Shown one piece after another: positions 1 through 28,545 of a DNA stretch of 29,595 nt (its first letter is position 1; every line of letters begins with the position of its first letter). A model generated the notes under the pieces. That model made no database searches, was not told the DNA's origin, and worked only from the letters and a program-made list of their open reading frames with translations. This stretch comes from a virus (Duplodnaviria > Heunggongvirae > Uroviricota > Caudoviricetes), in the IMG/VR virus record IMGVR_UViG_2558860274_000007. One strand, 5' to 3'. The position numbers and the translations under genes were made by a program.

Positions 1-219
1 TCACATCCACATAATTTGCTGCCCTGACGGCAACGGGTGCGGCCTTACGGCGTGGACTTCTCCCGGCTTCACGATGTATCGCTGTACCGACTCATAAGTG
101 ATGAACGTGGCACTGCAATTCACGTTCTGGCACTGATGATAACGCTCTTTTGTCGTGTCAGTGATATAGCGGCTTGTACGCGCATGTGCGGCATGCTGGC
201 ATAAAGGACAATGAAACAT
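1..219 (-). CDS. ogr: Ogr late-gene transcriptional activator, 72 aa zinc-finger protein
   Basis: Translation MFHCPLCQHAAHARTSRYITDTTKERYHQCQNVNCSATF... matches P2 Ogr with its C-x2-C...C-x4-C zinc motif. The ATG is at 217-219; the longer track ORF (1-348) is an upstream extension. Confidence 0.93.
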   Translation of the reverse strand: MFHCPLCQHAAHARTSRYITDTTKERYHQCQNVNCSATFITYESVQRYIVKPGEVHAVRPHPLPSGQQIMWM

Positions 220-298
220 CGCGAGCACCTCTTCCGGTTTTGTTGATGGTGCCATTTTAGTTAAATTACCCTTATAAAACAAACAGATAAAAAAAACT

Positions 299-1462
299 TT
301 ACTCATCACCTTCTGTTTCGTACTCCACATCAGAAAGCCTGACCTCAAGCTCTAAGGACGTCGTGAAGCCGCTATTATTGAGAAAATGTGCCACCTTAGT
401 GATTGTCCAGTCCTGCTCGTCTATGACGCGCTTAAAGCCTGATACTTTGACCGGCGTTTCCGTGTAAATATCTGCCCGACCAGTAGCCAGACTGATGGAG
501 AACTCCGCAACGCCCCGTTGCAGCTTATCCCACTTCGCCTGAGCGGCGCGCATGGCCTGCGCTTTCGTGGCATATACCGTGGTCAGGGCAAAAACGTTGT
601 CAGCCTCACCTGCCATGTATTCACCTTCGCGCGCTTCCGGTACTTTTGGCGCTTTCTTCTGCGTGACTGGTTTCGCTTTCGGGTGCTCCAGTGCGCGCAG
701 GTGTTTCTCTTTCTTTTTGCGTTTCAGTTTTACCTTCTGCTTTTGCGGCTTCGGGTCTTTGGTGTGTAACCACTTTGCCGTTACGCCGGTGTAAGCTCCA
801 CGGTCAGCAATCGCAAAATGATGACGGTCGCCGTCGCTGCGGGTGATGGTAATCTGCGGGATTTTTTTACCACTGGCCGTCACCCCCTGCCCCGCTTTGA
901 GAAACAACAGTTTTCCCATTTTTACAGAGACCTCACCGCCGTTGCGTTCTGCAAGACGGGTCAGGAATTTCGCATCAGACTCCTGCGACTGGTCGATGTG
1001 CGGGATTTTAATTCCGGCCAGTGACGGAGCGACACTGGCTTCCAGTCTGTTACGGGAGGCTATCGCCTCAACAATCGCACCGAGCGTGGTGTCATGCCAG
1101 GAGCCTTCACGGCGGGAATTGAGCGTCCCGCGGAAATCTGCACTCCGGGCGCGGATGGTGACCACATCCGGCGCGCCCCGGTGTTCAACCTCATCAACGG
1201 TGAATTTCCCTTTGCATACCAGGGCAAAACCTTTCCAGCCGATATACACCGTCAGGACAGCGCCACGAACCGGCAGCCCGACCTGCCCGTCGGCATCGTT
1301 CAGTTCAATATCAAGCTGGTCAGCCTCAAAGCCCCGGTTATCCGTCAGGGTCATGCTCATCAGACGGTCGCTGATATTGCCGGTAATATCCCTGCTGTCG
1401 AGCATCAGCATGTAATCCGGCGTCAGCGTACTGCCTGCATCAAATGTCAGCGCGTCCAGCAT
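299..1462 (-). CDS. D: Tail protein D (late gene D), 387 aa
   Basis: Start chosen at MLDALTFDAGST (ATG at 1462), giving the P2 gpD length of 387 aa. The track ORF extends to 1600 only because it runs into the inserted P-gene fragment. Confidence 0.88.
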   Translation of the reverse strand: MLDALTFDAGSTLTPDYMLMLDSRDITGNISDRLMSMTLTDNRGFEADQLDIELNDADGQVGLPVRGAVLTVYIGWKGFALVCKGKFTVDEVEHRGAPDVVTIRARSADFRGTLNSRREGSWHDTTLGAIVEAIASRNRLEASVAPSLAGIKIPHIDQSQESDAKFLTRLAERNGGEVSVKMGKLLFLKAGQGVTASGKKIPQITITRSDGDRHHFAIADRGAYTGVTAKWLHTKDPKPQKQKVKLKRKKKEKHLRALEHPKAKPVTQKKAPKVPEAREGEYMAGEADNVFALTTVYATKAQAMRAAQAKWDKLQRGVAEFSISLATGRADIYTETPVKVSGFKRVIDEQDWTITKVAHFLNNSGFTTSLELEVRLSDVEYETEGDE

Positions 1463-1489
1463 TATCCCGCCCCCGTCATACCCGTGAAT

Positions 1490-1619
1490 GAAAACCGCAA
1501 TGGTGCTCAAGGCAAAAGACGTTATTCGCCGTGGCTGTCTGGAATATGACGTCAGCGCCACCGACATCACCAGCTCGTTTATGGCTATCCGCAAGACCAT
1601 GACCAGCAGCGGACGCAGT
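1490..1619. repeat. Diverged ~130-bp direct copy of an internal segment of terminase gene P, inserted between U and D
   Basis: 1490-1619 matches 18153-18284 in the same orientation with a few mismatches (ctcaag/cttaag, attcgcc/atccgcc, tatgac/tacgac). Flanking sequence on both sides is unrelated. Confidence 0.8.
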
Positions 1620-2070
1620 TAGTCGCCATACTGCCAGCCTTACCGATGAGCGATTCCGCCTGTTTACCGATATCGCCATAAAGCGCGGCCAGTGATTCAT
1701 CAACGCGGGTGAGCGACAACGTAAAATCAATTTTCCGGGGTGTGCCGTCTGCAAAGAAAATACTCCCTGTTTCACTCACCCTGCTGATGACATACATGCC
1801 GTAAATCATGCCGGTGCCATCCAGCAACGGCCACGCCCGGCCTTCCTCTGCCATCAGCCTGAGCGTGGTCATCGTCAGCTTCCCGCCGGTCAGTTCGGGA
1901 TAAAGCACGCCGGCAAGCGTCATGTTTTCCTCACCCACACCGAGAAACTGAAAGGCATCCCGTTTACCGATACGGGAATTTGACGGCCAGCGATAATCTG
2001 ATTCGCGCTGCATGGTCTGGTGTGGCAGCGTCTGGCGCATAAAAACAAACATACCTAACGCGAGCATCAT
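1585..2070 (-). CDS. U: Tail protein U, with the C-terminal 11 residues encoded by the inserted P-fragment copy
   Basis: MMLALGMFVFMRQTLPHQTMQRESDYRWPSNSRIGKRDAF... is P2 gpU-like through ...GKAGSMAT; the tail NCVRCWSWSCG is read from the repeat at 1585-1620. Confidence 0.85.
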   Translation of the reverse strand: MMLALGMFVFMRQTLPHQTMQRESDYRWPSNSRIGKRDAFQFLGVGEENMTLAGVLYPELTGGKLTMTTLRLMAEEGRAWPLLDGTGMIYGMYVISRVSETGSIFFADGTPRKIDFTLSLTRVDESLAALYGDIGKQAESLIGKAGSMATNCVRCWSWSCG

Positions 2071-2084
2071 TTTTCGTCACCTCC

Positions 2085-4532
2085 TTAACCGTCATGCATC
2101 ATGCTGGCACGGGCGCGCGCACGTTTATCCCGCTCGTATTTTTCGAGCGCATCCTGTAACTGGCGGTCAAGCTGTGTCCCCGGCGCAGTACCACCGGTCA
2201 GGCTGATGTGATATTCGTTTTTACTCTGGTCCACATAAGAGCGGCCAGCCGGTGCCGTGACCGGCTGATAAGCCTGATAGCCTGCATAAGAGCTGGTCGC
2301 CGGAATATAACCACCGGTGCCATACGTGGCGGCATTAGTCCTTGCGGCGGTCTGGTCAAGTGTGTCTGACTCTTTGTTGATGACACCGAGTTTTTCCAGT
2401 ACCCAGTCAATACCACTGCGCAGTTTGTTGAACGCATTAAGCGGCAGCATCAACGCGTCAGCCAGTGCCTGCCCGAACATGACACCCGTGTCACGGCAAC
2501 GGTTCAGGGTGTCCTGGGTGGCTTTGACCGGGGCAATCAGGTTTTTAAACCACTGCCACGCGGCCTGTAACTTTTCGCCCAGCCAGTCAAACACCGGCTT
2601 AAGTGGCGTGAACAGTTCCCCCACCGGCGCAAATGCCGCTTTCAGCCCTTCCACCACACCGCCAAAGAATGCGCTGACAGGCTCCCAGTATTTACGAATA
2701 AGCAACGCCCCGGCGACAATGGCGGCCACCACGGCAACAACCGGCCAGCTAATCGCCCCGATGGCCGTCATAACAGCACTGCCAACCGTCGTGAAGATTG
2801 CCCCCATTGCGCCTGCTGCCGCGATGATGGCATTGATGCCGGTGATAACCGGCCAGGCTACGAGGCCAATGGCACCGATGACGCCAGTCAGCGCCAGTGC
2901 GCCACCGACAATGAGGCCGATGGTTGACGCCAGTGATTTGTTTTTCTGGATCCAGCCGTCGAGTTTTAACACATACTTTGTGGCCGTCTGTGTGAGCTTA
3001 CGCAGTGCGCCTTCCTGCTGGTCAAACAGGTCAGTCCCCACCGCCTCATAAGCGGACTGAAACTCCTTAAAGTCACCGCCGAGGTTATCCTGCATGATTT
3101 TAACCAGCTCTTCCGTTTTACCGTCCGAGGCTTTCAGCGTGGCGGTCAGCGTATCCAGTTTTCCGCTTGCTGCCGCTGCCAGTAAAACGTTCGCTGATTT
3201 CAGGGCTTCCTCACCAAAAATGGTTTTAAGGTATTCCCCCTTCTGAGACGTTCCCAGCTTGTGTTTATCAAAGCTGGCCTGAATCTCTTTCAGAATGGTG
3301 AACAACGGGCGCATATTTCCCTTTTTGTCCGAGGTTTTAACGCCAAGCTCTTTGAGTGCATCCCATGCTTTCCCTGTCGGAGCCTGTAATCGGGTGACAA
3401 CGGCACTGCTACCCGTACCCGCCATTGACCCCCTGATGTTATTGTCATGCAGCACACCTGTCATGGCTGCTGCCTGCTCAAGACTTACACCTGCCGTCTT
3501 CGCAACCGGGCCGAGATAAGTCAGTGCATCACTGAGTCCCTGAAAATCAGCCGCCGACTTATTCATCGTTGCCGACAACACGTCGCCCACATGACTGACA
3601 TCATCATTTGACAGTTGAAAGGATGCCTTAGTCCCCAGCAACAGTTGCGCGTTTTCTTCCATCGACCGCTGATTCGCCAGTGCCATATTCAGCGTGACCG
3701 GCGTTGCCGCCTGAATAGCCGCAGCATCTCCACCGGCTTTCGCAATGATAATCTGTGCACCGGCTGCATCATCCGCCGAGGCGGCAGTATTGTCACCGAG
3801 CTGGCGCGCCTGCTTGCGGAGTGCGGCCATTTCGGCGGAGTCTTTTGCCACGCCGAGCACGGCCTGCAATTCTGAGTTTTTCTGCGCAAACTCATAACCG
3901 GGCATCAGCAACTTAACACCGGCCATCGTTCCCGCCGCCGCAATCCCCACACCGGCAGCGCCCACTGAGGCCATAGTTCCGGCCAGTTCCTTTCCGGCCT
4001 GATAACGCTGTTTTACTGCGTTAAGTTTTGCCTGTTGCGCACTGACACGCGCCAGCGCGTCACGCTGCCGGTTAAGCTGCGCGGTGGTTTCACTGATACG
4101 GTTTTTCAGCCCCTGCTCATCATGTGCAAGATTGCGGGTATTAATTCCCACAGCAGCCAGTTCCCGCTGCTGGCGTTTAACGGAATCCGTCAGGCGGTTA
4201 TATTTCGCCTGTAAGTCCTCCGCTGCTCGCTTTGCGGATTCCAGCACTTTCGCCTGAGCACGGGTCGGACGCTCGGTGTTTTTAAACTGTGTGGCAAGGG
4301 CTTCGGCCTCCTGCCGTGCCTTTTCAAGTGCATGACCAGTCACGGCGAGCTGTGCACTGGTCTTGCGGAATCCCTCAATACGGGATGCCTGACCGTTCAG
4401 CTCGCGCAGTGATTTTTGTGTTTCCCGGATATCCCCCGACAGCGACTTACTCGCTGTGCGGATGGATTTAAACGGGCGGGATGCCTGGTCAACAGCCCTG
4501 AGCAATACCTGTAATTTTACATTGTTACTCAT
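2085..4532 (-). CDS. T: Tail tape measure protein T, 815 aa
   Basis: 815-aa ORF (the P2 gpT length), coiled-coil-rich N-terminal half and Gly/Ala-rich hydrophobic middle; sits between E/E' and U as in P2. Confidence 0.92.
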   Translation of the reverse strand: MSNNVKLQVLLRAVDQASRPFKSIRTASKSLSGDIRETQKSLRELNGQASRIEGFRKTSAQLAVTGHALEKARQEAEALATQFKNTERPTRAQAKVLESAKRAAEDLQAKYNRLTDSVKRQQRELAAVGINTRNLAHDEQGLKNRISETTAQLNRQRDALARVSAQQAKLNAVKQRYQAGKELAGTMASVGAAGVGIAAAGTMAGVKLLMPGYEFAQKNSELQAVLGVAKDSAEMAALRKQARQLGDNTAASADDAAGAQIIIAKAGGDAAAIQAATPVTLNMALANQRSMEENAQLLLGTKASFQLSNDDVSHVGDVLSATMNKSAADFQGLSDALTYLGPVAKTAGVSLEQAAAMTGVLHDNNIRGSMAGTGSSAVVTRLQAPTGKAWDALKELGVKTSDKKGNMRPLFTILKEIQASFDKHKLGTSQKGEYLKTIFGEEALKSANVLLAAAASGKLDTLTATLKASDGKTEELVKIMQDNLGGDFKEFQSAYEAVGTDLFDQQEGALRKLTQTATKYVLKLDGWIQKNKSLASTIGLIVGGALALTGVIGAIGLVAWPVITGINAIIAAAGAMGAIFTTVGSAVMTAIGAISWPVVAVVAAIVAGALLIRKYWEPVSAFFGGVVEGLKAAFAPVGELFTPLKPVFDWLGEKLQAAWQWFKNLIAPVKATQDTLNRCRDTGVMFGQALADALMLPLNAFNKLRSGIDWVLEKLGVINKESDTLDQTAARTNAATYGTGGYIPATSSYAGYQAYQPVTAPAGRSYVDQSKNEYHISLTGGTAPGTQLDRQLQDALEKYERDKRARARASMMHDG

Positions 4533-4952
4533 TCGTGTTTCCGCTTCGCCGGAGCGCCTTTTCGCGCCATGTGATGAGTTCGGTCAGGCTCATGGGATAC
4601 AGTTCTGATGGCGGCCAGTGAAATATCACTGCCACATCTGCCATCAGGTCATCGACCGACAGATTTTTCGGAAACGTCACTGCACCGAGTTCGGCGACAA
4701 AAAACCGACCACCTTACCGGCCAGCGCCACAAGGTCAGGCAGTTCCAGCGCGGCGACCTCCTGCTCGGTCAGCATCGGTGCCGTCATGCGCGGCAGTACC
4801 TTAATCAGTGCATCGACTTCGGAGTTTGCAACCGCAGCCAGACTGACACCGCGCAGCGTCCCGGCATTGGGTTTCATCAGCGTGACCTGTTCGATAACCT
4901 GCTCACCACGCTTGACCGGATTGTCCAGGGTAATCACATTTTCTTTGTTCAT
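4525..4952 (-). CDS. E+E': E+E' tail assembly chaperone fusion made by programmed -1 frameshift, predicted 142 aa
   Basis: Slippery TTTTTTG on the minus strand at 4698-4704, six codons before the E stop. Reading in the -1 frame from there gives a 57-codon extension ending at TAA 4525-4527, which overlaps the T start codon. 85 + 57 = 142 aa, the size I recall for P2 E+E'. Confidence 0.7.
4677..4952 (-). CDS. E: Tail assembly chaperone E, 91 aa
   Basis: 91-aa ORF MNKENVITLDNPVKRGEQVIEQ... directly upstream of T, the P2 gpE position and size. Confidence 0.9.
   Translation of the reverse strand: MNKENVITLDNPVKRGEQVIEQVTLMKPNAGTLRGVSLAAVANSEVDALIKVLPRMTAPMLTEQEVAALELPDLVALAGKVVGFLSPNSVQ
4698..4704 (-). 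other. Slippery heptamer TTTTTTG for the E/E' -1 frameshift
   Basis: Read directly from the sequence; codons GGT TTT TTG of E (G-F-L) on the minus strand. Confidence 0.65.
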
Positions 4953-5008
4953 GGTTTTCTCACTTCTGAATCGGGGTTAACCGGTCAGCCAGGCTGACCG
5001 GATGAAAA

Positions 5009-5527
5009 TCACAGGCCGATATTGCGGCGGTGTTGCTCCAGCCGGTCGACGCCGTTCACCTTCTCAATCATGTTGATGGTGTCGATTTCGACCAGCTCCT
5101 TACCGTCCATCGTCAGCCGGAAATAGGTGCAGACCACGGAGATTTTCGACTCGGTGTCTTCTCCCTGTTTGCCCTCGCCGGTGTCGATTTCTTTCTGACG
5201 TCCACGCATGACCACTTCGACGGCCACCGTTTCGCCGGTATCGTCACGCTGGTAAGAGCCTGCAAAACGAATCGGCACAGCATCCACACCGGTTGCGGCG
5301 TAAAGCTCCCAGATAACCGAATCCGGGAAGCCACCGAGCGACCACTCCATTGACAGCGCATCGTCATCAAGGCCGAGGTCTACCGGTGCGCTGCCGTTCA
5401 TCCCCGCACCGCGATAGTTTTCGAGCTTACGGGTCAGTTTTGGCAGCGTGACGGACTTTGCAACGCCCTGATAGCTGTAGCCGTTCAGAAAGACGTTCAT
5501 TAACTTGAGTTTGCGCGGCATTGCCAT
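5009..5527 (-). CDS. FII: Tail tube protein FII, 172 aa
   Basis: 172-aa ORF immediately downstream of FI; size and position match P2 gpFII. Confidence 0.92.
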   Translation of the reverse strand: MAMPRKLKLMNVFLNGYSYQGVAKSVTLPKLTRKLENYRGAGMNGSAPVDLGLDDDALSMEWSLGGFPDSVIWELYAATGVDAVPIRFAGSYQRDDTGETVAVEVVMRGRQKEIDTGEGKQGEDTESKISVVCTYFRLTMDGKELVEIDTINMIEKVNGVDRLEQHRRNIGL

Positions 5528-5539
5528 CGGTCAGGCTCC

Positions 5540-6730
5540 TTAATTGCTGTTAACCGAAGTGACCAGATTTGCCAGGTATTTATCGGTAATGCGCTGGCGC
5601 AGGGTCAGATTTTCAAGAGGAGGCACCGGGGTATAGTCGTAGTCGATATACAGTTTTCCGGCCTTGAGGGTTTCCGCATCGTTGGACTCTTCGCTGAACC
5701 AGCAGGTCGCATCCACGATATAGCCGTTTGTTTTCAGCTCACGGAATTTGGCATTGATGCCGTCAACGATGTCGCGAATCAGCGTTGCGGTGATGGGCTT
5801 GTCCACCGCCCACATGTGCGCCTCAGCCATCGTGTCGGCCAGCACCTGCGCGGTGCGGGTGTAGTTTTCAAAGAGGAACAGCGGATCATCAGAGCAGGTA
5901 CGGTTACCCCAGAAGCGGAAACCGTCACGGCGAATCAGCGTTGTGATGCCTGACTCGTTAAGCAGGTCAGCATCGGTGCCGGACTCCTGCAAATCCCAGA
6001 ATACGGACGCGCTGATGCCGGTAACACCGTTCACCCCGACGTTGGACAGCGTTTTATGCCAGCCCTGCTCCTGGTCGATTTTAGCGCGCAGACCCAGCGC
6101 ACGGGCGGTGGCATACGCGGTGGCGGTGGTACTGGCGACCGTATCCCATGCGAGGAAATCCGGCCAGATGACCATCAGCTCACGCTGGCTGAAATTCTGG
6201 CGGTAGGCTTTCACCTCGGAAATGGTTTTACAGCCCCATGCGCTGATATACCCGAAAGCGCGCAGCTTCTGACAGACTGATGCCAGTGCAACAGCCACCT
6301 CTTTGGTGTCCAGTCCCGGCACGCCGAGAATACGCGGTTTAACACCGGTTACCGACTCTGCCGCCAGCAGGGCCTTCAGTCCGGTGTACTGACCGTTTTC
6401 GTCAGTGGTGCCGATGATATTGGAAACGGTCTGCGCGAGTTTCGTTTCTTCGTCTTCGCCGGTGCCGTCTTCCACACGTACGACAACGGTGACCGGTTTT
6501 GACTGGTCGGCGATAGCCTGCAACGACGCCGCCAGCGTGCCTTTTTTACCGGCCTTTGCAATTGCACTCTGCACATTGGTAATCAGCACCGGTTTATTGA
6601 GGGGGAAGATTTCCGCATCCGCATCGCTGGCCGTGCAGACCATGCCAACAATGGCGGTGGATACGGTGGAAATGACGCGGGTGCCGTCGTTAATCTCCAG
6701 CACCTGCACGCCGTGATGATAGTCACTCAT
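5540..6730 (-). CDS. FI: Contractile tail sheath protein FI, 396 aa
   Basis: 396-aa ORF MSDYHHGVQVLEINDGTRVISTVSTAIVGMV...; GGAG ribosome-binding site about 8 nt upstream of the ATG. Confidence 0.93.
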   Translation of the reverse strand: MSDYHHGVQVLEINDGTRVISTVSTAIVGMVCTASDADAEIFPLNKPVLITNVQSAIAKAGKKGTLAASLQAIADQSKPVTVVVRVEDGTGEDEETKLAQTVSNIIGTTDENGQYTGLKALLAAESVTGVKPRILGVPGLDTKEVAVALASVCQKLRAFGYISAWGCKTISEVKAYRQNFSQRELMVIWPDFLAWDTVASTTATAYATARALGLRAKIDQEQGWHKTLSNVGVNGVTGISASVFWDLQESGTDADLLNESGITTLIRRDGFRFWGNRTCSDDPLFLFENYTRTAQVLADTMAEAHMWAVDKPITATLIRDIVDGINAKFRELKTNGYIVDATCWFSEESNDAETLKAGKLYIDYDYTPVPPLENLTLRQRITDKYLANLVTSVNSN

Positions 6731-6825
6731 CCGTTTAACTCCGTGGTTAATGGGTGCAACTATTTTCTGTTGGGCAGTGCATGAGACGCTATTTGACCTG
6801 GCTGGTCAGTGGATGAAACAACAGA

Positions 6826-6856
6826 TAAAGAAAAGGCAGGCAATTCGCCCGCCTGT
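6826..6856 (-). terminator. Putative intrinsic terminator for the cargo gene at 7050-7949
   Basis: On the minus strand: 8-bp stem AGGCGGGC/GCCTGCCT (one G-U wobble), 5-nt loop, then TTTTCTTTATCT. Confidence 0.4.
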
Positions 6857-7049
6857 CCTGATTTGTACTCACTCATTTTCCGACTGACAATTTACATAGC
6901 CAAAACGCTATCAAATCTGACAGTCTGCTTTGAGCGAGGAGCAGAGGTTAGTTTTAGTTAACCAAAATGATAAAAAGCAGTAGAAAAATCCGCTCATTAC
7001 GTTATGGTTATAAGCCGCACATAATCATCCGAGCCAAATCCTCTTGATT

Positions 7050-7949
7050 TCAAAGAATTAGCACTTGCTCTTCACTAGAAACTATGGTTCTGACTTCACG
7101 CTCAAATGTTGGATCCATTATCATTTTTCTATTTGTTGGAATAGTAAATTTACCGAGTACCATGACAATGCTACTCAACGGAAATAATTTTGGAGTAACA
7201 TTTCCTAATTGAATCGTAGGATATATATTAAAGCCCCCTTTTATCCTCATTGGCGAACCTTCAATGAAGTGTCGATAATTAAATTTCGCCATAGGGATTC
7301 TCGCCACATGCACTTTCATAATTACAGCAACCTGAGCTATTTTTACTTTCTGGAGGTAAGTTGACAATCGTTCTAACTGCGTTGTTTCATAGAAAAAATC
7401 AGACCACGTTACAGTACTTGTTCCAGTAACAATTTTTATGCTGTTTCTCTTGTTGGGGTGAGCTTTTCCATATTCATAGATCTCCCGTAAGCTATCCATG
7501 TTCTTCACATAGGGGGCTTTCCGACCTCTCTTGACATAAACGCGGTCTGTAGTATCAGAAGGTGGATTTGCCTGCATAGCTGCAGCTTTTCTGCTTAATT
7601 TAGAGATATCATCTTCATCGAGTATATGTATACGGAATATATTATTACCTGTGGCAAGCGCACGGCTGATATCATGACTGGAATCACTTGCATAAATTGT
7701 ATTCAATCCTGAAGTTCCATACTGACATAATTTGTCATGCGTGAAATTTTTTTCCAGTCTAAAGAAGGCGGGGATATGCAAGGTTTTATTAAAACTCCGA
7801 CGAATATGGCTTTTGACATACACCAAATGAGCAGAGCAATTTGGGTCAGGACATTTGAGTGGATAGGGATTAACACTATAATTAAAAGTATTTACATTTA
7901 CTAAAATCTGATTGTTATCAATAGCCTGAGTTATACGAATACCACTCAT
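7050..7949 (-). CDS. Hypothetical 299-aa protein of unknown function at the Z/fun-equivalent position (between FI and G); candidate accessory or defence gene
   Basis: Long ORF that is clearly AT-rich compared with the flanking tail genes. GGAGGAG ribosome-binding site a few nt before the ATG. N-terminal Cys/His cluster (C-PDPN-C...H...H...C). No family recognised by eye. Confidence 0.75.
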   Translation of the reverse strand: MSGIRITQAIDNNQILVNVNTFNYSVNPYPLKCPDPNCSAHLVYVKSHIRRSFNKTLHIPAFFRLEKNFTHDKLCQYGTSGLNTIYASDSSHDISRALATGNNIFRIHILDEDDISKLSRKAAAMQANPPSDTTDRVYVKRGRKAPYVKNMDSLREIYEYGKAHPNKRNSIKIVTGTSTVTWSDFFYETTQLERLSTYLQKVKIAQVAVIMKVHVARIPMAKFNYRHFIEGSPMRIKGGFNIYPTIQLGNVTPKLFPLSSIVMVLGKFTIPTNRKMIMDPTFEREVRTIVSSEEQVLIL

Positions 7950-13131: not shown

Positions 13132-13214
13132 GCGTGTGAGATTGCACAATATATAAAAGTTATGCTATCTGGATTCATTTGTAGAACGACCATACAACAT
13201 TCGAGGAGAGCGTA

Positions 13215-14000
13215 ATGTTCAGTGATAATGTGACTAATGCGTGGTGGTTTATCTCTTTGTATCTATTTTTATTAATAGCATTAACATTTGTTACCTTTGG
13301 TAAAAGTAATCTTATGAGGTTTATTGCACATCATTTCAATCTTGAGTATTCAGACAGAAAGTTAAAAATGCTCGACAAAAAATGGCGCGACATTCAACTA
13401 TTTAAAATAATTAACGGAATCAATGTATCAGGCATCGAAGATGTGAGAATGATACAGCAGGGGCTGATTGATGGAAAACTAAAAACATCGTATTTTTTCC
13501 TTACTCGCTTCTGGGGTGACATAACAAAACCACCACACATAATTAAAACAACAATTGTAATTCTGGCCAGTATTATTTATATTCTCTTCGCATGTTATAT
13601 ACACAATGAACAATCCGCTATAGTAAGGGATGCCATAGGTATACCATATAAAAATATGATGTACTATGTTTATAGTGACAAAGTTCTTTTATCCTTCAAA
13701 AATAAAACGGTTGAATTTAATAAAACTTATAGCCTTGCCGATTGCAAGAGTCTGCAAAACGTATTTATAAAAGACACACTTCCCGAGATCGCCTGCAATA
13801 AGCTCTTACAGCTAAACAAGGAGGACTCCGAATGGTTAAGTCAGGAGATTAAAGATAATAACAGTCACAAAAAAGCATTATTAATACTATCCCTCGTCTA
13901 TTTCACTTCAGGTCTGGTTATATTCCTGTCATATACAAAATTCTTTTACGCCAATAAGAAGGTTTTAGAATACAAAGCATCAAATAAAAATCACTCATAA
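13215..14000 (+). CDS. Hypothetical 261-aa membrane protein with three predicted transmembrane helices, inserted between V and S in the opposite orientation; candidate moron (superinfection exclusion or abortive infection)
   Basis: Very AT-rich ORF with a GAGGAG ribosome-binding site 6 nt before the ATG. Hydrophobic segments AWWFISLYLFLLIALTFVTF, IIKTTIVILASIIYILFACYI and ALLILSLVYFTSGLVIFLSY. A hairpin terminator follows directly. Confidence 0.75.
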   Translation: MFSDNVTNAWWFISLYLFLLIALTFVTFGKSNLMRFIAHHFNLEYSDRKLKMLDKKWRDIQLFKIINGINVSGIEDVRMIQQGLIDGKLKTSYFFLTRFWGDITKPPHIIKTTIVILASIIYILFACYIHNEQSAIVRDAIGIPYKNMMYYVYSDKVLLSFKNKTVEFNKTYSLADCKSLQNVFIKDTLPEIACNKLLQLNKEDSEWLSQEIKDNNSHKKALLILSLVYFTSGLVIFLSYTKFFYANKKVLEYKASNKNHS

Positions 14001-14007
14001 ACCTCTA

Positions 14008-14045
14008 AACATTGAGCGACCAGCATGGCCGCTCAATGTTTAATT
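14008..14045. terminator. Hairpin terminator between the convergent cargo gene and S
   Basis: Perfect 11-bp stem AACATTGAGCG / CGCTCAATGTT with an 11-nt loop, followed by TTTAATT on the plus strand. Confidence 0.6.
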
Positions 14046-14071
14046 GCGCATCAGCCTCTGCCTGGATAAAA

Positions 14072-15517: not shown

Positions 15518-15645
15518 AGTTCCCGCCCCTCAAGACGCTGACGACAGGCTTTACGTATCAGCCGGAAAAACAGCGACGCCACAAGATAAATCAGCGCGGT
15601 AAAAATCCACCCGGCAGCGACCAGCGAGATAAACGTCGCCACCAT
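15505..15645 (-). pseudogene. Possible 3' remnant of lysA (46-codon hydrophobic ORF) left by the O-to-lysA deletion
   Basis: Short ORF MVATFISLVAAGWIFTALIYLVASLFFRLIRKACRQRLEGRELCQS whose stop overlaps the lysB start, which is where the lysA 3' end lies in P2. Its start coincides with the point where O diverges from P2. Confidence 0.3.
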
Positions 15646-16477
15646 CACCACCACCGCCGGTGGCCTTGCTGCGGCGCTGCTGGGTCAGACTTTCGGTGTG
15701 GTCGAGACTGTTTTTCAGGCGGGTGAATGCCTGGCTGGTTTCATCCGCCCTGTCAGTCACCTCCTGCTTAAGTGCGGAAAAGGCGTTTTCCATCTCAGCG
15801 AGGCGCTGCTCAGTGGCGCTCAGTTTTTCCTGCACATGTTCAGCAACAGCGGTCACCGCTTCATGCACGTCATTCAGACGGGCGTCATCGCTGGCCTGTT
15901 TGCGGCCAAAAATGGATTTCACCTTTTCGGTCAGGGCGGTGAACACGGTTTCAGGCAGGTCTTCAAATTCCAGCTCAACGGGCGTTGCCACTGAAATCAG
16001 GTTTTCAGGGCTTAATTTGAAGCGGTTCAGGGGGTTGTGTTTTGCCGTGCGGCAGAATTCCAGATATTCCGTGCCGAGGCTTGCCGGGTCATCGGTGACG
16101 GCCAGCCCCACCAGATAACATTTGCCGGTGTTGGCAAAGTTCGGCTGAATCTCCATTGAGGTGTAGACCTTCTGCGCGGCCTTGTTCATCGCGATAAGGT
16201 CATCGGTCGGGGTGATTTTCGCAAACAGCGCCCATTTGCCTTTCAGCGCCGAATCATCGTCAATCTTTTCGGCCTTCAGTTCAGCCACATCACCATAACG
16301 TTTAAAAATACCGTCAGGCAGGATGCCGCGCAGATGTTCCAGGTTAATGCGGCAACCATAGACTCGCGGGTCAAAGGTTTCGGCCATTTCCTGAATATCC
16401 TGCGCGCTGATGACACGCCCGTCACAGGTGTCACCCTCAACGCCGATACGAAAGAATTTTGAGACTTTTTTTGCCAT
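15551..16477 (-). CDS. O: Capsid scaffold protein O with an altered C-terminus (about 278 native residues plus a 30-residue unrelated tail)
   Basis: MAKKVSKFFRIGVEGDTCDGRVISAQDIQEMAETFDPRVYG... is P2 gpO-like up to ...RRSKATGGGGD, then GGDVYLAGRCRVDFYRADLSCGVAVFPADT read across the deletion junction. Start at the ATG for MAKK (16477). Confidence 0.85.
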   Translation of the reverse strand: MAKKVSKFFRIGVEGDTCDGRVISAQDIQEMAETFDPRVYGCRINLEHLRGILPDGIFKRYGDVAELKAEKIDDDSALKGKWALFAKITPTDDLIAMNKAAQKVYTSMEIQPNFANTGKCYLVGLAVTDDPASLGTEYLEFCRTAKHNPLNRFKLSPENLISVATPVELEFEDLPETVFTALTEKVKSIFGRKQASDDARLNDVHEAVTAVAEHVQEKLSATEQRLAEMENAFSALKQEVTDRADETSQAFTRLKNSLDHTESLTQQRRSKATGGGGDGGDVYLAGRCRVDFYRADLSCGVAVFPADT

Positions 16478-16650: not shown

Positions 16651-18423
16651 ATGACCATCACCACAGACACCACTCTTTTACACGACCCGCGTCGTCAGGC
16701 GGCGCTGCTGTACTGGCAGGGGTTTTCCGTGCCGCAGATTGCCGCCATGTTGCAGATGAAACGCCCGACAGTGCAGAGCTGGAAACAGCGCGACGGCTGG
16801 GACAGCGTTGCCCCCATCAGCCGTGTCGAAATGAGTCTGGAAGCGCGGCTGACCCAGCTCATCATCAAACCGCAGAAAACCGGCGGTGATTTCAAGGAAA
16901 TTGACCTGCTGGGACGCCAGATTGAACGACTGGCACGGGTCAACCGTTACAGTCAGACCGGCAACGAGGCAGACCTTAATCCGAACGTCGCTAACCGCAA
17001 CAAAGGCGGGCGTCGCAAACCGAAAAAGAATTTTTTCAGTGACGAGGCCATCGAAAAGCTGGAGCAGATTTTCTTTGAGCAGTCTTTCGACTATCAGTTG
17101 CACTGGTATCGCGCCGGGCTTGAGCACCGCATCCGCGATATCCTGAAATCCCGCCAGATTGGTGCGACGTATTATTTTTCCCGCGAGGCGCTGCTGCACG
17201 CACTGAAAACCGGCCATAACCAGATTTTTCTGTCGGCCAGTAAAACGCAGGCGTATGTGTTCCGTGAATACATCATCGCCTTTGCCCGGCTGGTTGACGT
17301 TGACCTGACCGGTGACCCGATTGTCCTGGGCAATAACGGCGCAAAACTGATTTTTCTCGGCACCAACTCCAACACCGCGCAGAGCCATAACGGCGACCTG
17401 TACGTCGACGAGATTTTCTGGATCCCGAATTTTCAGGTACTGCGTAAGGTGGCATCAGGTATGGCCTCACAGAGTCACCTGCGTTCGACCTATTTCTCCA
17501 CCCCGTCCACGCTGGCGCACGACGCCTACCCGTTCTGGTCGGGTGAACTGTTTAACCGGGGACGCGCCAGCGCCGCTGAACGCGTGGAAATCGACGTCAG
17601 TCATAACGCACTTGCCGGAGGTCTTCTCTGTGCGGACGGCCAGTGGCGGCAGATTGTCACCATTGAGGACGCCCTGAAAGGCGGCTGCACGCTGTTCGAC
17701 ATTGAGCAGCTCAAACGCGAAAACAGCGCCGACGATTTTAAAAACCTGTTCATGTGTGAATTTGTTGACGACAAGGCGTCGGTGTTCCCGTTCGAGGAGT
17801 TGCAACGCTGCATGGTCGACACGCTGGAAGAATGGGAAGACTATGCGCCGTTTGCCGCCAATCCGTTCGGCTCACGCCCGGTCTGGATTGGTTACGACCC
17901 GTCACACCGTGGCGACAGCGCCGGATGCGTGGTGCTGGCACCGCCGGTGGTTGCCGGTGGCAAATTCAGAATACTTGAGCGTCACCAGTGGAAAGGCATG
18001 GACTTTGCCACCCAGGCGGAATCCATCCGCAAACTCACCGAAAAATACAACGTCGAATACATCGGTATTGATGCCACCGGCCTCGGTGTCGGCGTGTTCC
18101 AGCTCGTGCGCTCGTTCTATCCTGCCGCGCGCGACATCCGCTACACGCCGGAAATGAAAACCGCAATGGTGCTTAAGGCAAAAGACGTTATCCGCCGTGG
18201 CTGTCTGGAATACGACGTCAGCGCCACCGACATCACCAGCTCGTTTATGGCTATCCGCAAGACCATGACCAGCAGCGGACGCAGCGCCACCTATGAGGCC
18301 AGCCGCAGCGAGGAAGCCAGCCACGCCGACCTCGCCTGGGCGACCATGCACGCCCTGTTAAATGAGCCACTCACCGCCGGTATCAGCACCCCGCTGACAT
18401 CCACCATTCTGGAGTTTTACTGA
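16651..18423 (+). CDS. P: Terminase large (ATPase/nuclease) subunit P, 590 aa
   Basis: Start at the ATG for MTITTDTTLLHDPRRQAALLYWQG, with GAGG 4-5 nt upstream. 590 aa as in P2 gpP. Stop overlaps the Q start (TGATG). Confidence 0.93.
   Translation: MTITTDTTLLHDPRRQAALLYWQGFSVPQIAAMLQMKRPTVQSWKQRDGWDSVAPISRVEMSLEARLTQLIIKPQKTGGDFKEIDLLGRQIERLARVNRYSQTGNEADLNPNVANRNKGGRRKPKKNFFSDEAIEKLEQIFFEQSFDYQLHWYRAGLEHRIRDILKSRQIGATYYFSREALLHALKTGHNQIFLSASKTQAYVFREYIIAFARLVDVDLTGDPIVLGNNGAKLIFLGTNSNTAQSHNGDLYVDEIFWIPNFQVLRKVASGMASQSHLRSTYFSTPSTLAHDAYPFWSGELFNRGRASAAERVEIDVSHNALAGGLLCADGQWRQIVTIEDALKGGCTLFDIEQLKRENSADDFKNLFMCEFVDDKASVFPFEELQRCMVDTLEEWEDYAPFAANPFGSRPVWIGYDPSHRGDSAGCVVLAPPVVAGGKFRILERHQWKGMDFATQAESIRKLTEKYNVEYIGIDATGLGVGVFQLVRSFYPAARDIRYTPEMKTAMVLKAKDVIRRGCLEYDVSATDITSSFMAIRKTMTSSGRSATYEASRSEEASHADLAWATMHALLNEPLTAGISTPLTSTILEFY
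18153..18284. repeat. Parent copy, inside P, of the segment duplicated at 1490-1619
   Basis: Near-identical to 1490-1619 over about 130 bp, same orientation. Confidence 0.8.
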
Positions 18424-19645: not shown

Positions 19646-19872
19646 CGCCCGCTTCATGGGTCGGTTTTGATGCAATTCCAAAAGCCGTCCAAACTCTCTT
19701 AGGCTAAATGTCCAACGAGAAAATAGTGCTTTGAATGTGAATGCATTTTAATGCAGAGTTATGCCCAGCATTTTTGTACACTTCGATGTATCAAATGCGC
19801 TGCAAACGATCAAATATGGATGTTTTATCAAGCATCCCCCAAAAGATATTTACATCATCCCATGAGGTTAAG

Positions 19873-20946
19873 ATGGATAACAAAATCGTAGAAATTGAGA
19901 CAAATAAGCTTGATTTTGACCCTAAAAACCCACGTTTCTTTCGTCTCAATGATGCCAGTAACGCTGCAACAGTCATTGAGGAAATGTTAGATGACGAAAG
20001 TGTCCACGATCTAATGCTATCAATCGGTCAGCAAGGTTACTTTCCTGGAGAACCTTTATTGGCAGTAAAAAGCAATGGAAACTACATCGTGGTTGAGGGA
20101 AACAGACGCTTAGCTGCTGTAAAGTTGCTCAATGGAGATCTGCTTCCTCCAAAAAGAAAACTTAAAGGTGTGCAAGAAATCATTGATGATACTACCAATA
20201 AACCTAAGAAGCTTCCCTGCATCATTTATGAAAACCGAGAGGATGTACTGAGATATATCGGTTATCGTCATATAACTGGGGTCAAAGAATGGGACTCATT
20301 ATCTAAAGCCAAATACCTTAAAGAGTTATGTGATACTTTTTATTCACATGAACCTAAAGAGATAGTATTAAAAAATCTGGCTCGTGAGATTGGGAGTAAA
20401 CCACATTATGTTGCAACACTTCTCACTGCACTGAACTTATATGAAGTCGCGCATGACCATGAGTTTTTTAATTTACCCATGAAGGCTTCTGACGTGGAAT
20501 TTTCATATATAACCACAGCTTTGGGATATTCAAAAATCACAAACTGGTTAGGTCTACAGGATAAAAAGGATTTTTTAGACCCAAATTTAAATGAAGAAAA
20601 CCTTAAGCGTTTATTCTCTTGGTTTTTTGTGCCTGACCAACAAGGTAGAACCATCATCGGTGAGTCTCGAAGAATAAAAGATATTGCAGCAGTGGTTGAG
20701 AAACCCGAAGCAATTGAAATTCTCATGAAAAGTTCAAACTTGGATGAAGCATATCTATATACCAGCGGAGAAAGAGAAGCATTAGATAAAGCACTAAACG
20801 CAGCTAGTGTTAAATTAAGAGTAGTTTGGGATATGCTACTTAAAGCTAAAGAATTAACATTAGAGCATGAAGAGGCTGCATCTGAAATTTTTGAGATGTC
20901 AAAAAATATTAGAAATCAGATCAGAAGCAAAAGGGAGGATGATTGA
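19873..20946 (+). CDS. ParB-like (ParB/Srx-fold N-terminal domain) protein, 357 aa; first gene of the cargo cassette after cos
   Basis: Start chosen at the ATG for MDNKIVEIE, with GAGG 5 nt upstream. ParB-like motifs DFDPKNPRF and YIVVEGNRRLAAVKLL. AT-rich. The track ORF starts 44 codons earlier with no ribosome-binding site. Confidence 0.72.
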   Translation: MDNKIVEIETNKLDFDPKNPRFFRLNDASNAATVIEEMLDDESVHDLMLSIGQQGYFPGEPLLAVKSNGNYIVVEGNRRLAAVKLLNGDLLPPKRKLKGVQEIIDDTTNKPKKLPCIIYENREDVLRYIGYRHITGVKEWDSLSKAKYLKELCDTFYSHEPKEIVLKNLAREIGSKPHYVATLLTALNLYEVAHDHEFFNLPMKASDVEFSYITTALGYSKITNWLGLQDKKDFLDPNLNEENLKRLFSWFFVPDQQGRTIIGESRRIKDIAAVVEKPEAIEILMKSSNLDEAYLYTSGEREALDKALNAASVKLRVVWDMLLKAKELTLEHEEAASEIFEMSKNIRNQIRSKREDD

Positions 20947-20950
20947 GATT

Positions 20951-21976
20951 ATGATTACAAATCTTGATTCAATGCCTTCTAATGAGCCTTATTTATGGGC
21001 TGATTATATTGAGATATTGGCCTTAACTAATATCGACAGGTCATTCAGTCGAGGAGACCTATATAGCACACTGCAAGCTCAACCCGAAGCAGTACTAGCT
21101 GAAACAGATGAAGCAGAAGAAGAGGGCGTTTATGATGTTGATGATGAAAATGATACGCCTGTACGCAAGAGAACAAAACGAAGTGTTAGTCGAGCATATA
21201 CTGACAGAAAGTGGAGCTATGCGATAGGCTTCATACGACAACGCATTGATTTATTTGGGGATAGTTACCCTTTTACTTTATCAGAAGACAACGATACTGT
21301 AGAGTTACGTGATATATCAGAAAAGCCACTGGAACATTTAGAAAGACTATATTTAGCTTTACTAATCTGTGCTAACATAAAATATGTCAACATAATGAGC
21401 AGAAGAGAGATAACGCGCAGTTTTGAACTAATTAGTTTACCTATTTTTGAAAGCCTAATGCCTAGCGGTAGCATAATAAAAGCATGCTGGGCTTCTGGTG
21501 GTCAAGCGGCCCCTTACACTGGAACTCTATATAATAAATTTAAGAGTATTGCTTCCGATATCCGTTGCACAGCGAACTTCAAAGAACGAGATTTCAGTCG
21601 AGGAAATAGTGGTGACGGAGGCCTTGACATAATTGCCTGGCATCCAATGGGAGATCAACGAGATGCCATCCCTATTTCTTTTGTTCAGTGTGGCTGTTCT
21701 CAAGAAGAGTGGGAAGCGAAGCAGCTTGAGGCCTCACCTGCGATGCTCTACAGTAAATTCCCCGTAGCTCACCGATGGGCAACTTATTATTTCTTACCTC
21801 AAGATCTACGATGGATAGATGGTGAGTGGGCACATAAAAATAAGTTAGGCGATGCTATTTTTGTTGATCGCCTAAGATTAATCAATTTAACCAGAGCATC
21901 TGATAATATTGATCACAGTCAAAATATTAGCTATCTAGATATCATCCTTGATCCTTCCAGCGCGATCGCTGCTTAG
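20951..21976 (+). CDS. Hypothetical ~340-aa protein with a putative Mrr-like / PD-(D/E)xK nuclease motif; second gene of the cassette
   Basis: C-terminal half contains GNSGDGGLDIIAW...ISFVQCG, which resembles the Mrr catalytic signature (GDGG-I/L-D ... QxK) but lacks the Lys. Acidic low-complexity N-terminal region. AAGGGAGG ribosome-binding site upstream; the start could be the ATG at 20939 or 20951. Overlaps the gene 1 stop. Confidence 0.65.
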   Translation: MITNLDSMPSNEPYLWADYIEILALTNIDRSFSRGDLYSTLQAQPEAVLAETDEAEEEGVYDVDDENDTPVRKRTKRSVSRAYTDRKWSYAIGFIRQRIDLFGDSYPFTLSEDNDTVELRDISEKPLEHLERLYLALLICANIKYVNIMSRREITRSFELISLPIFESLMPSGSIIKACWASGGQAAPYTGTLYNKFKSIASDIRCTANFKERDFSRGNSGDGGLDIIAWHPMGDQRDAIPISFVQCGCSQEEWEAKQLEASPAMLYSKFPVAHRWATYYFLPQDLRWIDGEWAHKNKLGDAIFVDRLRLINLTRASDNIDHSQNISYLDIILDPSSAIAA

Positions 21977-22911
21977 TCCCATAAATCTGGAAGGTTTCTA
22001 GCAACCGCCTCAAACAATGGAGGCGGTACTGCATTACCTACCACAGTATATTTCATATTAATAGAAGCCCGTTCAGTTTCTGGGAAAATTAAATCTCCAA
22101 AACCTTGTAAAATAGCAGCCTCTCGATAGCTAAACCTACGAGCTGGTGCATCCGAAGTAAATTGCCACTTATCAGGTCCCAATTTTTCTAATGTTGGACT
22201 TATTGGATGTAGAGGCATATGTCTAGGATTTGCAACAATTGTTTTAGATATCTGATCCCAATCTTGCCTACGGTTTCGCGATAGATAATACCAATGAAAA
22301 TCGGCGTCATAAAACTCGCCAACAGGCCAAACAGGCATATGCCCAATAGCATCACGAATTGTGGAATATGGTGTCAAACCATCACCATGTGTTGGTTTTG
22401 GAAATTTGTATGTAATACCGTAGTCCTTTCGTATTCCTACGATAAAGATTCGCTTCCTATCTTGGGATACCCCATAATGGGACGCATTCAGAATTTGCGA
22501 GCTTACTGTATAACCTGCTTCTTCGAAAACTTTGAATTGATCCTTTAATAAATGCTCAAAGTTACGCCTTACCATACCAGAGACATTCTCTACAATGAAT
22601 GCTTTTGGCTTAATTTTACTCAAAGCACGGGCAAACTCTAAATATAGTGTATTAATCTTTCTATCTGCCTTCCTTGCCCCACCTTGACTAAATCCTTGGC
22701 AAGGATAGCATCCGATGAGCAACTCAGCAGAAGGGAACGACTGGAGCCCTGAGATATCGCCCAAAATGTAGTCAGTTTCAGGATGGTTTTCTAAGTAAAC
22801 GTCCCTTGCGTAAGGCAAAATATCATTTGCCATAAGCACATTGAAACCTGCGTTCAAAACTCCCGCATCAGAACCACCACATCCAGAAAAAAGTGAAACT
22901 ACAGTTGGCAT
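21973..22911 (-). CDS. DNA (cytosine-5)-methyltransferase, 312 aa, convergent with the two-gene operon
   Basis: Canonical C5-MTase motifs in order: motif I FSGCGG, motif IV PCQGFS, motif VI ENV, motif VIII QDRKR, and C-terminal GNAVPP. Perfect AGGAGG ribosome-binding site 5 nt upstream. Its 3' end overlaps the gene 2 stop by about 4 nt. Confidence 0.9.
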   Translation of the reverse strand: MPTVVSLFSGCGGSDAGVLNAGFNVLMANDILPYARDVYLENHPETDYILGDISGLQSFPSAELLIGCYPCQGFSQGGARKADRKINTLYLEFARALSKIKPKAFIVENVSGMVRRNFEHLLKDQFKVFEEAGYTVSSQILNASHYGVSQDRKRIFIVGIRKDYGITYKFPKPTHGDGLTPYSTIRDAIGHMPVWPVGEFYDADFHWYYLSRNRRQDWDQISKTIVANPRHMPLHPISPTLEKLGPDKWQFTSDAPARRFSYREAAILQGFGDLIFPETERASINMKYTVVGNAVPPPLFEAVARNLPDLWD

Positions 22912-27842: not shown

Positions 27843-28115
27843 TCACAACCCCATCCACAAAAGCCATGCATCACGCTGTTCAACCGGTCGGTTATAAAAC
27901 GCCTCACGTACAGCGCGATTAAACTCAGGAATGAAAACCCATTTTTCACCGGCACGAGCCTTCGGTTTGCAAGGATCACGCAATTCAATAATTGGTAATT
28001 TATTTGCCTTCACCATTTCACTGACGGCTGTCTTTGGCTTCCCTAATAAATCAGCAAATTTATCCACATGAACCGCATCAAGCGGATACTGAATCACATA
28101 ATTTTCAGCGTCCAT
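27843..28115 (-). CDS. cox: Cox-like excisionase / early transcriptional regulator, about 90 aa
   Basis: First gene of the early operon, divergent from C. Start chosen at the ATG for MDAENYVIQ, with GAGGG 8 nt upstream. Sequence is diverged from P2 Cox but of the same size, with the WLLWMGL C-terminal motif. Confidence 0.78.
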   Translation of the reverse strand: MDAENYVIQYPLDAVHVDKFADLLGKPKTAVSEMVKANKLPIIELRDPCKPKARAGEKWVFIPEFNRAVREAFYNRPVEQRDAWLLWMGL

Positions 28116-28190
28116 ATATGGTACCCTCATAGGATCCAGCCCTTTCTAAACCACTCAAAACCGTTTAGACGCTGGTTTATTCTCAAATCA

Positions 28191-28241
28191 ATGGAACCTA
28201 TATAGGTTCCATTTTTGAGGGAATTTAGTCCCTATATAGGC
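28191..28241. promoter_or_regulatory. Immunity control region between cox and C: putative operators and divergent promoters
   Basis: Perfect 22-bp palindrome ATGGAACCTATATAGGTTCCAT, and the decamer CCTATATAGG repeated directly about 34 bp apart; TATA-containing cores suggest overlap with -10 elements. Confidence 0.45.
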
Positions 28242-28251
28242 ACCATGTCAA

Positions 28252-28545
28252 ATGAAATTAAGCGAAAAGATTAAGGCCTTGCGTGAGGCTGAAGGGCTAA
28301 GCCAATCAAAATTCTGTGAAATCATAGAGTTACCGCTAAGCACACTTAAAAAATATGAAGGAGGAAACTTTGAACCCGGTGGCACAGCTTTGCTAAAAAT
28401 CACTATGCATCCCACATTCCAAAAATATGCTCTATGGCTTATGACAGATAAAACCGCGCCGGACGCAGGACAAATCGCACCGGCTCTCGCGCACATTGGG
28501 CCAGAGTCAACAGAGTCCAACCACTCCGAGAAAAGGATTGGCTAA
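28252..28545 (+). CDS. C: C immunity repressor, 97 aa
   Basis: MKLSEKIKALREAEGLSQSKFCEIIELPLSTLKKYEGGNF... with a C-terminal QIAPALAH motif as in P2 C; helix-turn-helix-like N-terminus; divergent from cox. Confidence 0.85.
   Translation: MKLSEKIKALREAEGLSQSKFCEIIELPLSTLKKYEGGNFEPGGTALLKITMHPTFQKYALWLMTDKTAPDAGQIAPALAHIGPESTESNHSEKRIG

Follow-up and report, generated by a model that had tools for sequence, protein, structure and literature searches.

Alternative end joining in E. coli usually proceeds with resection and loss of target bases, and filler insertions are found at the resulting break junctions. A different kind of event, SPDIR, was demonstrated in Acinetobacter baylyi in 2016 work that is described in a preprint, which states that ectopic single strands of intragenomic or extragenomic origin are integrated at microhomologies, or extended microhomologies, to give microindels of ~3-100 bp (bioRxiv 10.1101/2023.11.22.568220). 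The locus described here is a 129-bp piece of a P2-type terminase gene, P, that lies within the tail gene U of a prophage of Escherichia albertii KF1, upstream of gene D. SPDIR-like integration is the closest documented precedent for this insert. The likenesses are an identifiable ectopic donor (P codons ~502-545), (extended) microhomology at the D-side joint, and an event that is rare and presumably deleterious. However, SPDIR as described there uses microhomology at both joints, whereas the KF1 insert is without any at its U-side joint, and the KF1 patch of 129 bp is slightly above the approximate ~3-100 bp range given for SPDIR. In addition, no deletion accompanies the KF1 insert, and the SPDIR host in that account is Acinetobacter baylyi and not Escherichia. 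Because microhomology is present at one joint only and the patch is somewhat larger than the approximate size range, the insert was not classed as SPDIR. Break-repair filler or templated insertions are likewise short ectopic stretches with little or no microhomology at the junction. In this case, the difference is that end joining in E. coli normally loses target bases, while the KF1 insert lost none.

Exact protein matches assign the DNA analyzed (29,595 nucleotides, referred to here in its entirety as the window) to the KF1 chromosome (CP007025.1), where it lies between fieF and cpxP. A BLAST comparison with Wphi (NC_005056) showed it to be a Wphi-like (Peduovirus) prophage in reverse orientation, with 96-99.7% identity over collinear blocks. 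The gene order reads ogr-D-U-T-E-FII-FI-orf44-G-H-I-J-W-V-(cargo)-S-R-lysC/B up to a break, and from there O'-P-Q-cos-orf98-orf96-mth-...-A-...-B-cox-C-int, and this collinear late and early gene order, together with the high identity to the type phage, places the element within Peduovirus. The full set of essential morphogenesis and lysis genes was not found in the window, as Wphi 4001-7780 is absent and U is altered. The absent segment amounts to a 3.78-kb deletion relative to Wphi, located between 15-bp direct repeats (window 15645-15659), with which the 3' end of O, the 5' end of lysA, and the whole of N, M, L, X, Y, and K were lost. What is left is an O'-'lysA fusion ORF of 308 aa (15551-16477, minus strand), in which the scaffold gene O is joined to the 3' part of lysA. 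Since the deletion removed those genes, the prophage is incapable of capsid assembly, DNA packaging, and cell lysis. A first-pass annotation of this DNA had regarded the insert in U as a second rearrangement scar, and this was borne out, the O-lysA deletion being the other. The O'-'lysA fusion protein is recorded only in E. albertii KF1, and there is therefore no sister genome with which to date the insertion.

Non-Wphi cargo at 13132-14069 separates baseplate gene V from tail gene S, presumably where P2 has orf30; its plus strand contains an ORF of 261 aa (13215-14000) with no Pfam match on record. The immunity region (28100-28474, from cox to the start of repressor C) gave no nucleotide match to Wphi while int and the early operon match it at 96-98%, which suggests that the prophage is heteroimmune to Wphi. 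The variable slot adjacent to cos (19741-22911) holds Wphi-type orf98, orf96, and a cytosine methylase, with orf98 being a 401-aa ORF that has a faint ParB_N match. In a remnant at the fieF locus of JBANPP010000020 (L009:2711-5587), the same slot holds methylase, GmrSD, and HEPN genes, a difference typical of defence-gene turnover at this hot spot. The KF1 annotation gives ogr 84 aa (window 1-348), versus 72 aa in Wphi and E. coli.

A repeat search over the whole window returned one outstanding direct repeat, 1482-1618 against 18148-18284 (137 nt, 96%, spacing 16666), the second-longest repeat family being a 75-nt pair in the tail-fibre gene. The pairwise alignment that the first-pass annotation had proposed as a check was combined with a base-by-base comparison, and the true homology was found to pair 1487-1618 with 18153-18284 over 132 nt. 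The insert differs from the resident P at three positions (1508/18174, 1526/18192, and 1547/18213), giving 97.7% identity and leaving perfect blocks of 21, 17, 20, and 71 bp between the two copies. The earlier description of 1490-1619 as a same-orientation copy of 18153-18284 with a few substitutions therefore held, except that the copy ends at 1618 and not at 1619. The resident P (16651-18423, plus strand) begins with an ATG at 16651, encodes the terminase large subunit of 590 aa, is collinear with Wphi P 1222-2994, and carries Terminase_6N/6C domains in the KF1 annotation. Both copies lie on the plus strand, the coding direction of P, whereas the tail genes are on the minus strand, and the insert thus lies antisense within the tail operon.

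The flanks of the insert are 99.5-100% identical to Wphi, and the remainder of the element follows the collinear order ogr-D-U-T...P-Q-cos...A-B-cox-C-int of Wphi and other Peduovirus members. In the BLAST alignment, the contiguous Wphi bases 20948 and 20947 correspond to window positions 1489 and 1619. Because the flanking bases are contiguous in Wphi, window 1490-1618 is a pure 129-bp insertion, homologous to 18156-18284, and comparison with Wphi revealed no target bases lost or duplicated at the insertion site. This ectopic copy of an internal P segment sits inside U, 28 nt ahead of the native stop codon. In Wphi and in all of the phages and E. coli prophages examined, U ends in a stop that overlaps the start of D, with no P-derived piece, whereas KF1 has 129 bp of P at this place. 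The suggestion that the insert had replaced a U-D intergenic region does not hold, as the insert lies inside U and P2-type phages are without such a region.

The target joint reads CCCGTGAAT/TTAGTCGCC (short form CCCGTGAAT/TTAGTC), with the slash marking the point of joining. The corresponding string in the window is CCCGTGAAT/GAAAACC...GGACGCAG/TTAGTCGCC, and that in the donor is GCCGGAAAT/GAAAACC...GGACGCAG/CGCCACC (short form GGAAAT/GAAAACC...GACGCAG/CGCCACC). At the D-side joint there is a 3 bp microhomology, AAT at 1487-1489, that is common to the target (U) and the donor (P), and with mismatches allowed 6 of 9 positions match over CCCGTGAAT and GCCGGAAAT. At the U-side joint (1618/1619), a comparison of GCAG/TTAG with GCAG/CGCC revealed no microhomology. 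No inverted repeats were detected within 1440-1670, nor was a target-site duplication. A transposable element (IS or MITE) was considered, and transposition was excluded because neither TIR nor TSD is present; the inserted sequence is, moreover, a slice of a coding gene. Homologous conversion, or legitimate recombination of any other kind, was excluded because flanking homology is lacking, the similarity stopping at 1487 and 1618 with unrelated flanks beyond. We consider it probable, with good confidence, that the insert is a genuine but functionless scar of a single illegitimate (homology-independent) templated insertion into the 3' end of U.

The insert had been described at first as a diverged copy of the resident gene. 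All three differences are, however, synonymous third-position transitions (CTT/CTC Leu, ATC/ATT Ile, and TAC/TAT Tyr), and the insert region (132 nt) is 100% identical to P alleles of prophages in many complete E. coli genomes. Compared with the resident P, four such donor-type alleles show 16-21 differences in 932 positions, spread over the whole region. Since the changes are synonymous and the insert is identical to extant alleles, the donor was another P allele; the insert is an unmutated copy of a different natural allele, and not a decayed copy of the resident one. The presence of both copies in the same prophage, in the same orientation and at 97.7% identity, could also be taken to mean that a segment of the resident P was duplicated within the prophage and then diverged by point mutation. 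Random decay of a noncoding fragment would not be expected to yield a natural allele, however, let alone one in which every change is a synonymous third-position transition in the P frame and which matches extant alleles exactly, alleles from which the resident P differs region-wide, and this origin is very unlikely. The donor may have been a co-resident or superinfecting P2-like phage or, alternatively, the resident P itself before a later overwriting by recombination. No second P2-like element that might have served as the donor was found beside the prophage on either side.

Under the single templated insertion favoured here, 129 bp of a P2-type terminase gene would have been copied into U by one illegitimate recombination event. 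The patch could have been generated by a replication template switch to P and back, by an ectopic single strand that annealed at a fork in an SPDIR-like manner, or by the capture of a fragment at a break. P2 replicates by the rolling-circle mode, and single strands could plausibly have come from a P2-like phage replicating in this way. The scar adds one more case to a known class of events; it is ordinary and constitutes no new biological system.

KF1 was assembled in 2014 with MaSuRCA from Ion Torrent reads of 183 bp, 2x250 Illumina reads, and 454 mate pairs of 8 kb, and its gaps were filled in silico with GapFiller, with the remaining ones checked by PCR (PMC3907721). The insert is known from one genome and one assembly (CP007025.1), and because that assembly is short-read and GapFiller-closed, the caveat of an assembly artefact is stronger than first thought. 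One interpretation is that KF1 has a normal U-D junction and that, during assembly or gap closing, 129 bp were threaded into it from a second P allele elsewhere. Reads from a D-U'/P' remnant may have been mis-threaded in the construction of MaSuRCA super-reads or in GapFiller closure. In a variant that hinges on the k used by the assembler, the end of the insert, 71 nt past the last SNP, may lie at k-1. Such an artefact would be in keeping with the use of short reads only and of in-silico gap filling, with the nonresident P allele borne by the insert, as expected with a second P copy, and with the restriction of both scars, insert and 15-bp-repeat deletion alike, to this single assembly. The asymmetry of the joints, with 3 bp on one side and 0 on the other, would also fit a real remnant junction combined with an artificial abutment. 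However, joining by overlap or k-mer needs far more than 0-3 shared bases, and coverage was high on three platforms. The end of the insert does not coincide with an allelic branch point, given that at 18285 the four donor-type alleles do not differ from the resident and that the next donor/resident allelic differences come only at 18354 or 18466. The D-U'/P' remnant that an artefact requires was absent from 5,426 E. coli genomes and other collections, and the prophage is flanked by no second P2-like element from which the reads might have come. An artefact is thus unlikely, and a real event is favoured because joints of 0-3 bp would not be bridgeable by overlap-based assembly or gap filling. 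As GapFiller joins contig ends on short overlaps, the O-lysA deletion scar could also be an assembly artefact.

The distribution of the insert was studied in phage and bacterial sequences. None of the 139 phage records matching the U-D junction contains it, all of them matching in two pieces with a span of ~210 bp, and the same was true of the E. coli genomes that match the junction (0 of 1,614, with 1,612 matching in two pieces). Full-coverage matches in CP051001 and CP062203 were rejected as occurrences, as these are deletion remnants of the form D-U/P'(last 285 bp)-Q, with the P piece simply close to U. Both junction strings were absent from IMG/VR contigs, GTDB species-representative genomes, and JGI metagenome contigs. 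The two junctions, the exact modified U, and a 44-aa ORF made by the insert are on record only on CP007025.1, and the insertion event is unique to the KF1 genome. Nothing on the D-U insert locus was found in the literature on KF1 or E. albertii prophages.

Several short P fragments that cluster with the 44-aa ORF were tried as further occurrences and discarded. P0017 is an in-place frameshifted P gene; P0023 is a G'/P'-Q deletion remnant; and P0022, an E. albertii protein that has the same ...GRS end before its stop and is recorded without a contig, is probably a RefSeq re-annotation of KF1 and not an independent case. Two gpU variants, P0025 ('...SMATNSRV') and P0028 ('...GSM/GPQAV'), diverge near the same codon as the KF1 protein. 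P0025 is a -1 frameshift in an AAA run inside another deletion remnant and P0028 is an IS-flanked U fragment, and because these changes are unrelated to the insert, a target-site hot spot in U was rejected.

The insert and the resident P form a 132-bp direct repeat with its copies 16.7 kb apart. The minimal processing segment for RecBCD/RecA recombination in E. coli was reportedly put at ~25 bp by Shen and Huang in 1986. As the 71-bp perfect block exceeds this figure, a rare RecA-dependent deletion of 16,666 bp is plausible and would leave ogr-D-U'(28 nt)-P'-Q. This predicted product was found neither in E. coli genomes nor in viral, species-representative, or metagenome contigs. The remnants in CP051001 (O157:H16 98-3133) and CP062203 (K_EC180) are likewise illegitimate joins of the end of U to the 3' part of P in an ogr-D... 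neighbourhood, with 3-7 bp of microhomology at their joints. These are, however, 16-kb deletions (D-U/P'-Q), whereas KF1 has an insertion and retains the U-to-P span.

Three independent remnants join P at CGC/TACACG (CGC/TACACGCCGG), which corresponds to window 18138-18145, and they do so with different left partners. The partner is a point 8 nt upstream of U in CP051001, the middle of U in CP062203, and an unrelated tail-fibre-assembly gene in an ENA metagenome scaffold; the breakpoint loci are L002:2067-2069, L003:1959-1965, and L008:~293. Between the CGC/TACACG breakpoint and the left end of the donor segment there are 10-15 nt. A further remnant, in CP080235, breaks P elsewhere, at ~18246, where it is joined to ogrK. 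The CGC/TACACG site in P is a possible hot spot of breakage or recombination, and a break-prone site would fit, post hoc, an origin of the insert by fragment capture. The idea that the site mimics the origin recognized by the gpA rolling-circle nickase found no support, as gene A contains nothing similar to the motif and matches to it across the window were no more frequent than expected by chance; no description of the P2 nick site was found in the accessible literature.

The modified tail gene U (1585-2070, minus strand; GenBank AHE59885.1) encodes 161 aa and ends in a TAG stop at 1587-1585. Translation and comparison with Wphi gpU, a protein of 159 aa with the C terminus KFTGMTGAG, showed that the altered gpU consists of native residues 1-150 followed by NCVRCWSWSCG, a tail encoded by the reverse strand of the insert. 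This confirmed the prediction that U now ends in residues derived from the terminase fragment, and, in a comparison with the 139 phage records, no intact P2-like phage had the NCVRCWSWSCG ending. The claim that the 3' end of U had been replaced is correct for the protein, where the 11-residue foreign tail takes the place of the conserved last 9 residues, but not for the DNA, in which the native last 9 codons are intact and only displaced. Among 120 gpU homologues, a C-terminal pattern of ...G-M/L-x-G-x-G/S is conserved, and the exchange for a Cys/Trp-rich tail would for this reason more likely be harmful than neutral. A structural role for the tail was sought in the only solved homologue, the pyocin ripcord PA0626 (6u5b), and was set aside, as the alignment is limited to gpU residues 8-126 and is uninformative on the tail, which it leaves uncovered.

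The insert also changes the relationship between U and D. In Wphi, the stop codon of U overlaps the start codon of D in a TAATG sequence, sharing base 20975. In KF1, the displaced 3' end of U, comprising the last 9 codons and the stop (1462-1489, minus strand), is identical to Wphi 20975-20948 and, with the TAATG overlap, is intact at 1460-1489. It now forms an untranslated leader before D and still bears the G-rich ribosome-binding stretch of that gene. With the U stop separated from the D start by the insert, D begins 122 nt past the new U stop, and the translational coupling of U to D would be broken. The true CDS of D, the gene for the tail/baseplate hub (299-1462, minus strand), starts with the ATG at 1462 and encodes 387 aa; its length and start are as in Wphi D, and the KF1 annotation likewise gives 387 aa. 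A mechanically called D ORF runs from 299 to 1600 and encodes 433 aa. The additional 46 codons at its N terminus (1463-1600, minus strand) lie in a frame that is open by chance across the insert, and the first-pass annotation was right to call this extension spurious and to attribute it to the insert.

On the plus strand, a 44-aa ORF (1488-1622; MKTAMV...SSGRS, followed by a stop) encodes a fragment of the gpP nuclease domain and is labelled 'phage large terminase subunit GpP' in GenBank (AHE59884.1). It starts with an ATG and ends right at the junction. Neither a Shine-Dalgarno sequence nor a promoter was found for it, and it is most likely not expressed. The 44-aa 'GpP' ORF and any 433-aa D are by-products of the insert and not genes.

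Within 1200-2200, the counts of promoter-like and terminator-like sequences were at the level of shuffled sequence, and the lone promoter-like match sits in native sequence. For minus-strand RNA spanning the insert, the predicted fold was no more stable than that of shuffled sequences (z = +0.74), and no Rfam family match was obtained for the insert RNA. As the Ogr-dependent FI-D operon contains the insert in antisense, a transcript of the insert would be complementary to P mRNA, and 129 nt of the tail-operon transcript would be antisense to that mRNA. This complementarity is a consequence of orientation and not evidence of regulation, and the features by which a cis-encoded antisense RNA is recognized (its own transcript, conserved sequence or structure, and conservation) were not found.

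The antisense placement of the insert inside the Ogr-dependent FI-FII-E-T-U-D operon, and the 44-aa ORF that is open from an ATG to the junction, might nevertheless be read as signs of a selected functional element, acting either as an antisense RNA against the prophage's own or a superinfecting P2-like terminase or as a 44-aa dominant-negative terminase fragment. Such an element is extremely unlikely, given that the insert is a singleton with no conservation, that a promoter, terminator, Shine-Dalgarno sequence, stable fold, and RNA family are all lacking, and that the host prophage is decaying; the 44 residues are, in addition, an internal slice of the nuclease domain and would probably not fold alone. 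A more elaborate form of this reading holds that the insert is a piece of the terminase of a superinfecting P2-like phage and that the Ogr protein of an invader induces an anti-terminase RNA, so as to provide a CRISPR-independent, sequence-specific 'memory' that hinders packaging. This is compatible with the nonresident allele and the antisense placement, but nothing else supports it, and it is scarcely credible. None of the consequences of the insert, whether the gpU tail, the coupling, the antisense stretch, or the repeat, appears to be selected.

The scar is of importance mainly to annotation and quality control: the record of U needs a flag for its altered C terminus, and that of the prophage one for its defective state. 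Were the artefact to prove true, the locus would be a cautionary case for 'complete' genomes built from short reads and in-silico gap filling. The donor allele indicates that the insert either came from a different P2-like genome or is older than a gene conversion of the resident P. As the functionless scar of a single illegitimate event, which is the reading preferred here, the KF1 insert would be a tidy natural case of clean ectopic templated insertion and a small data point on prophage decay and exchange.
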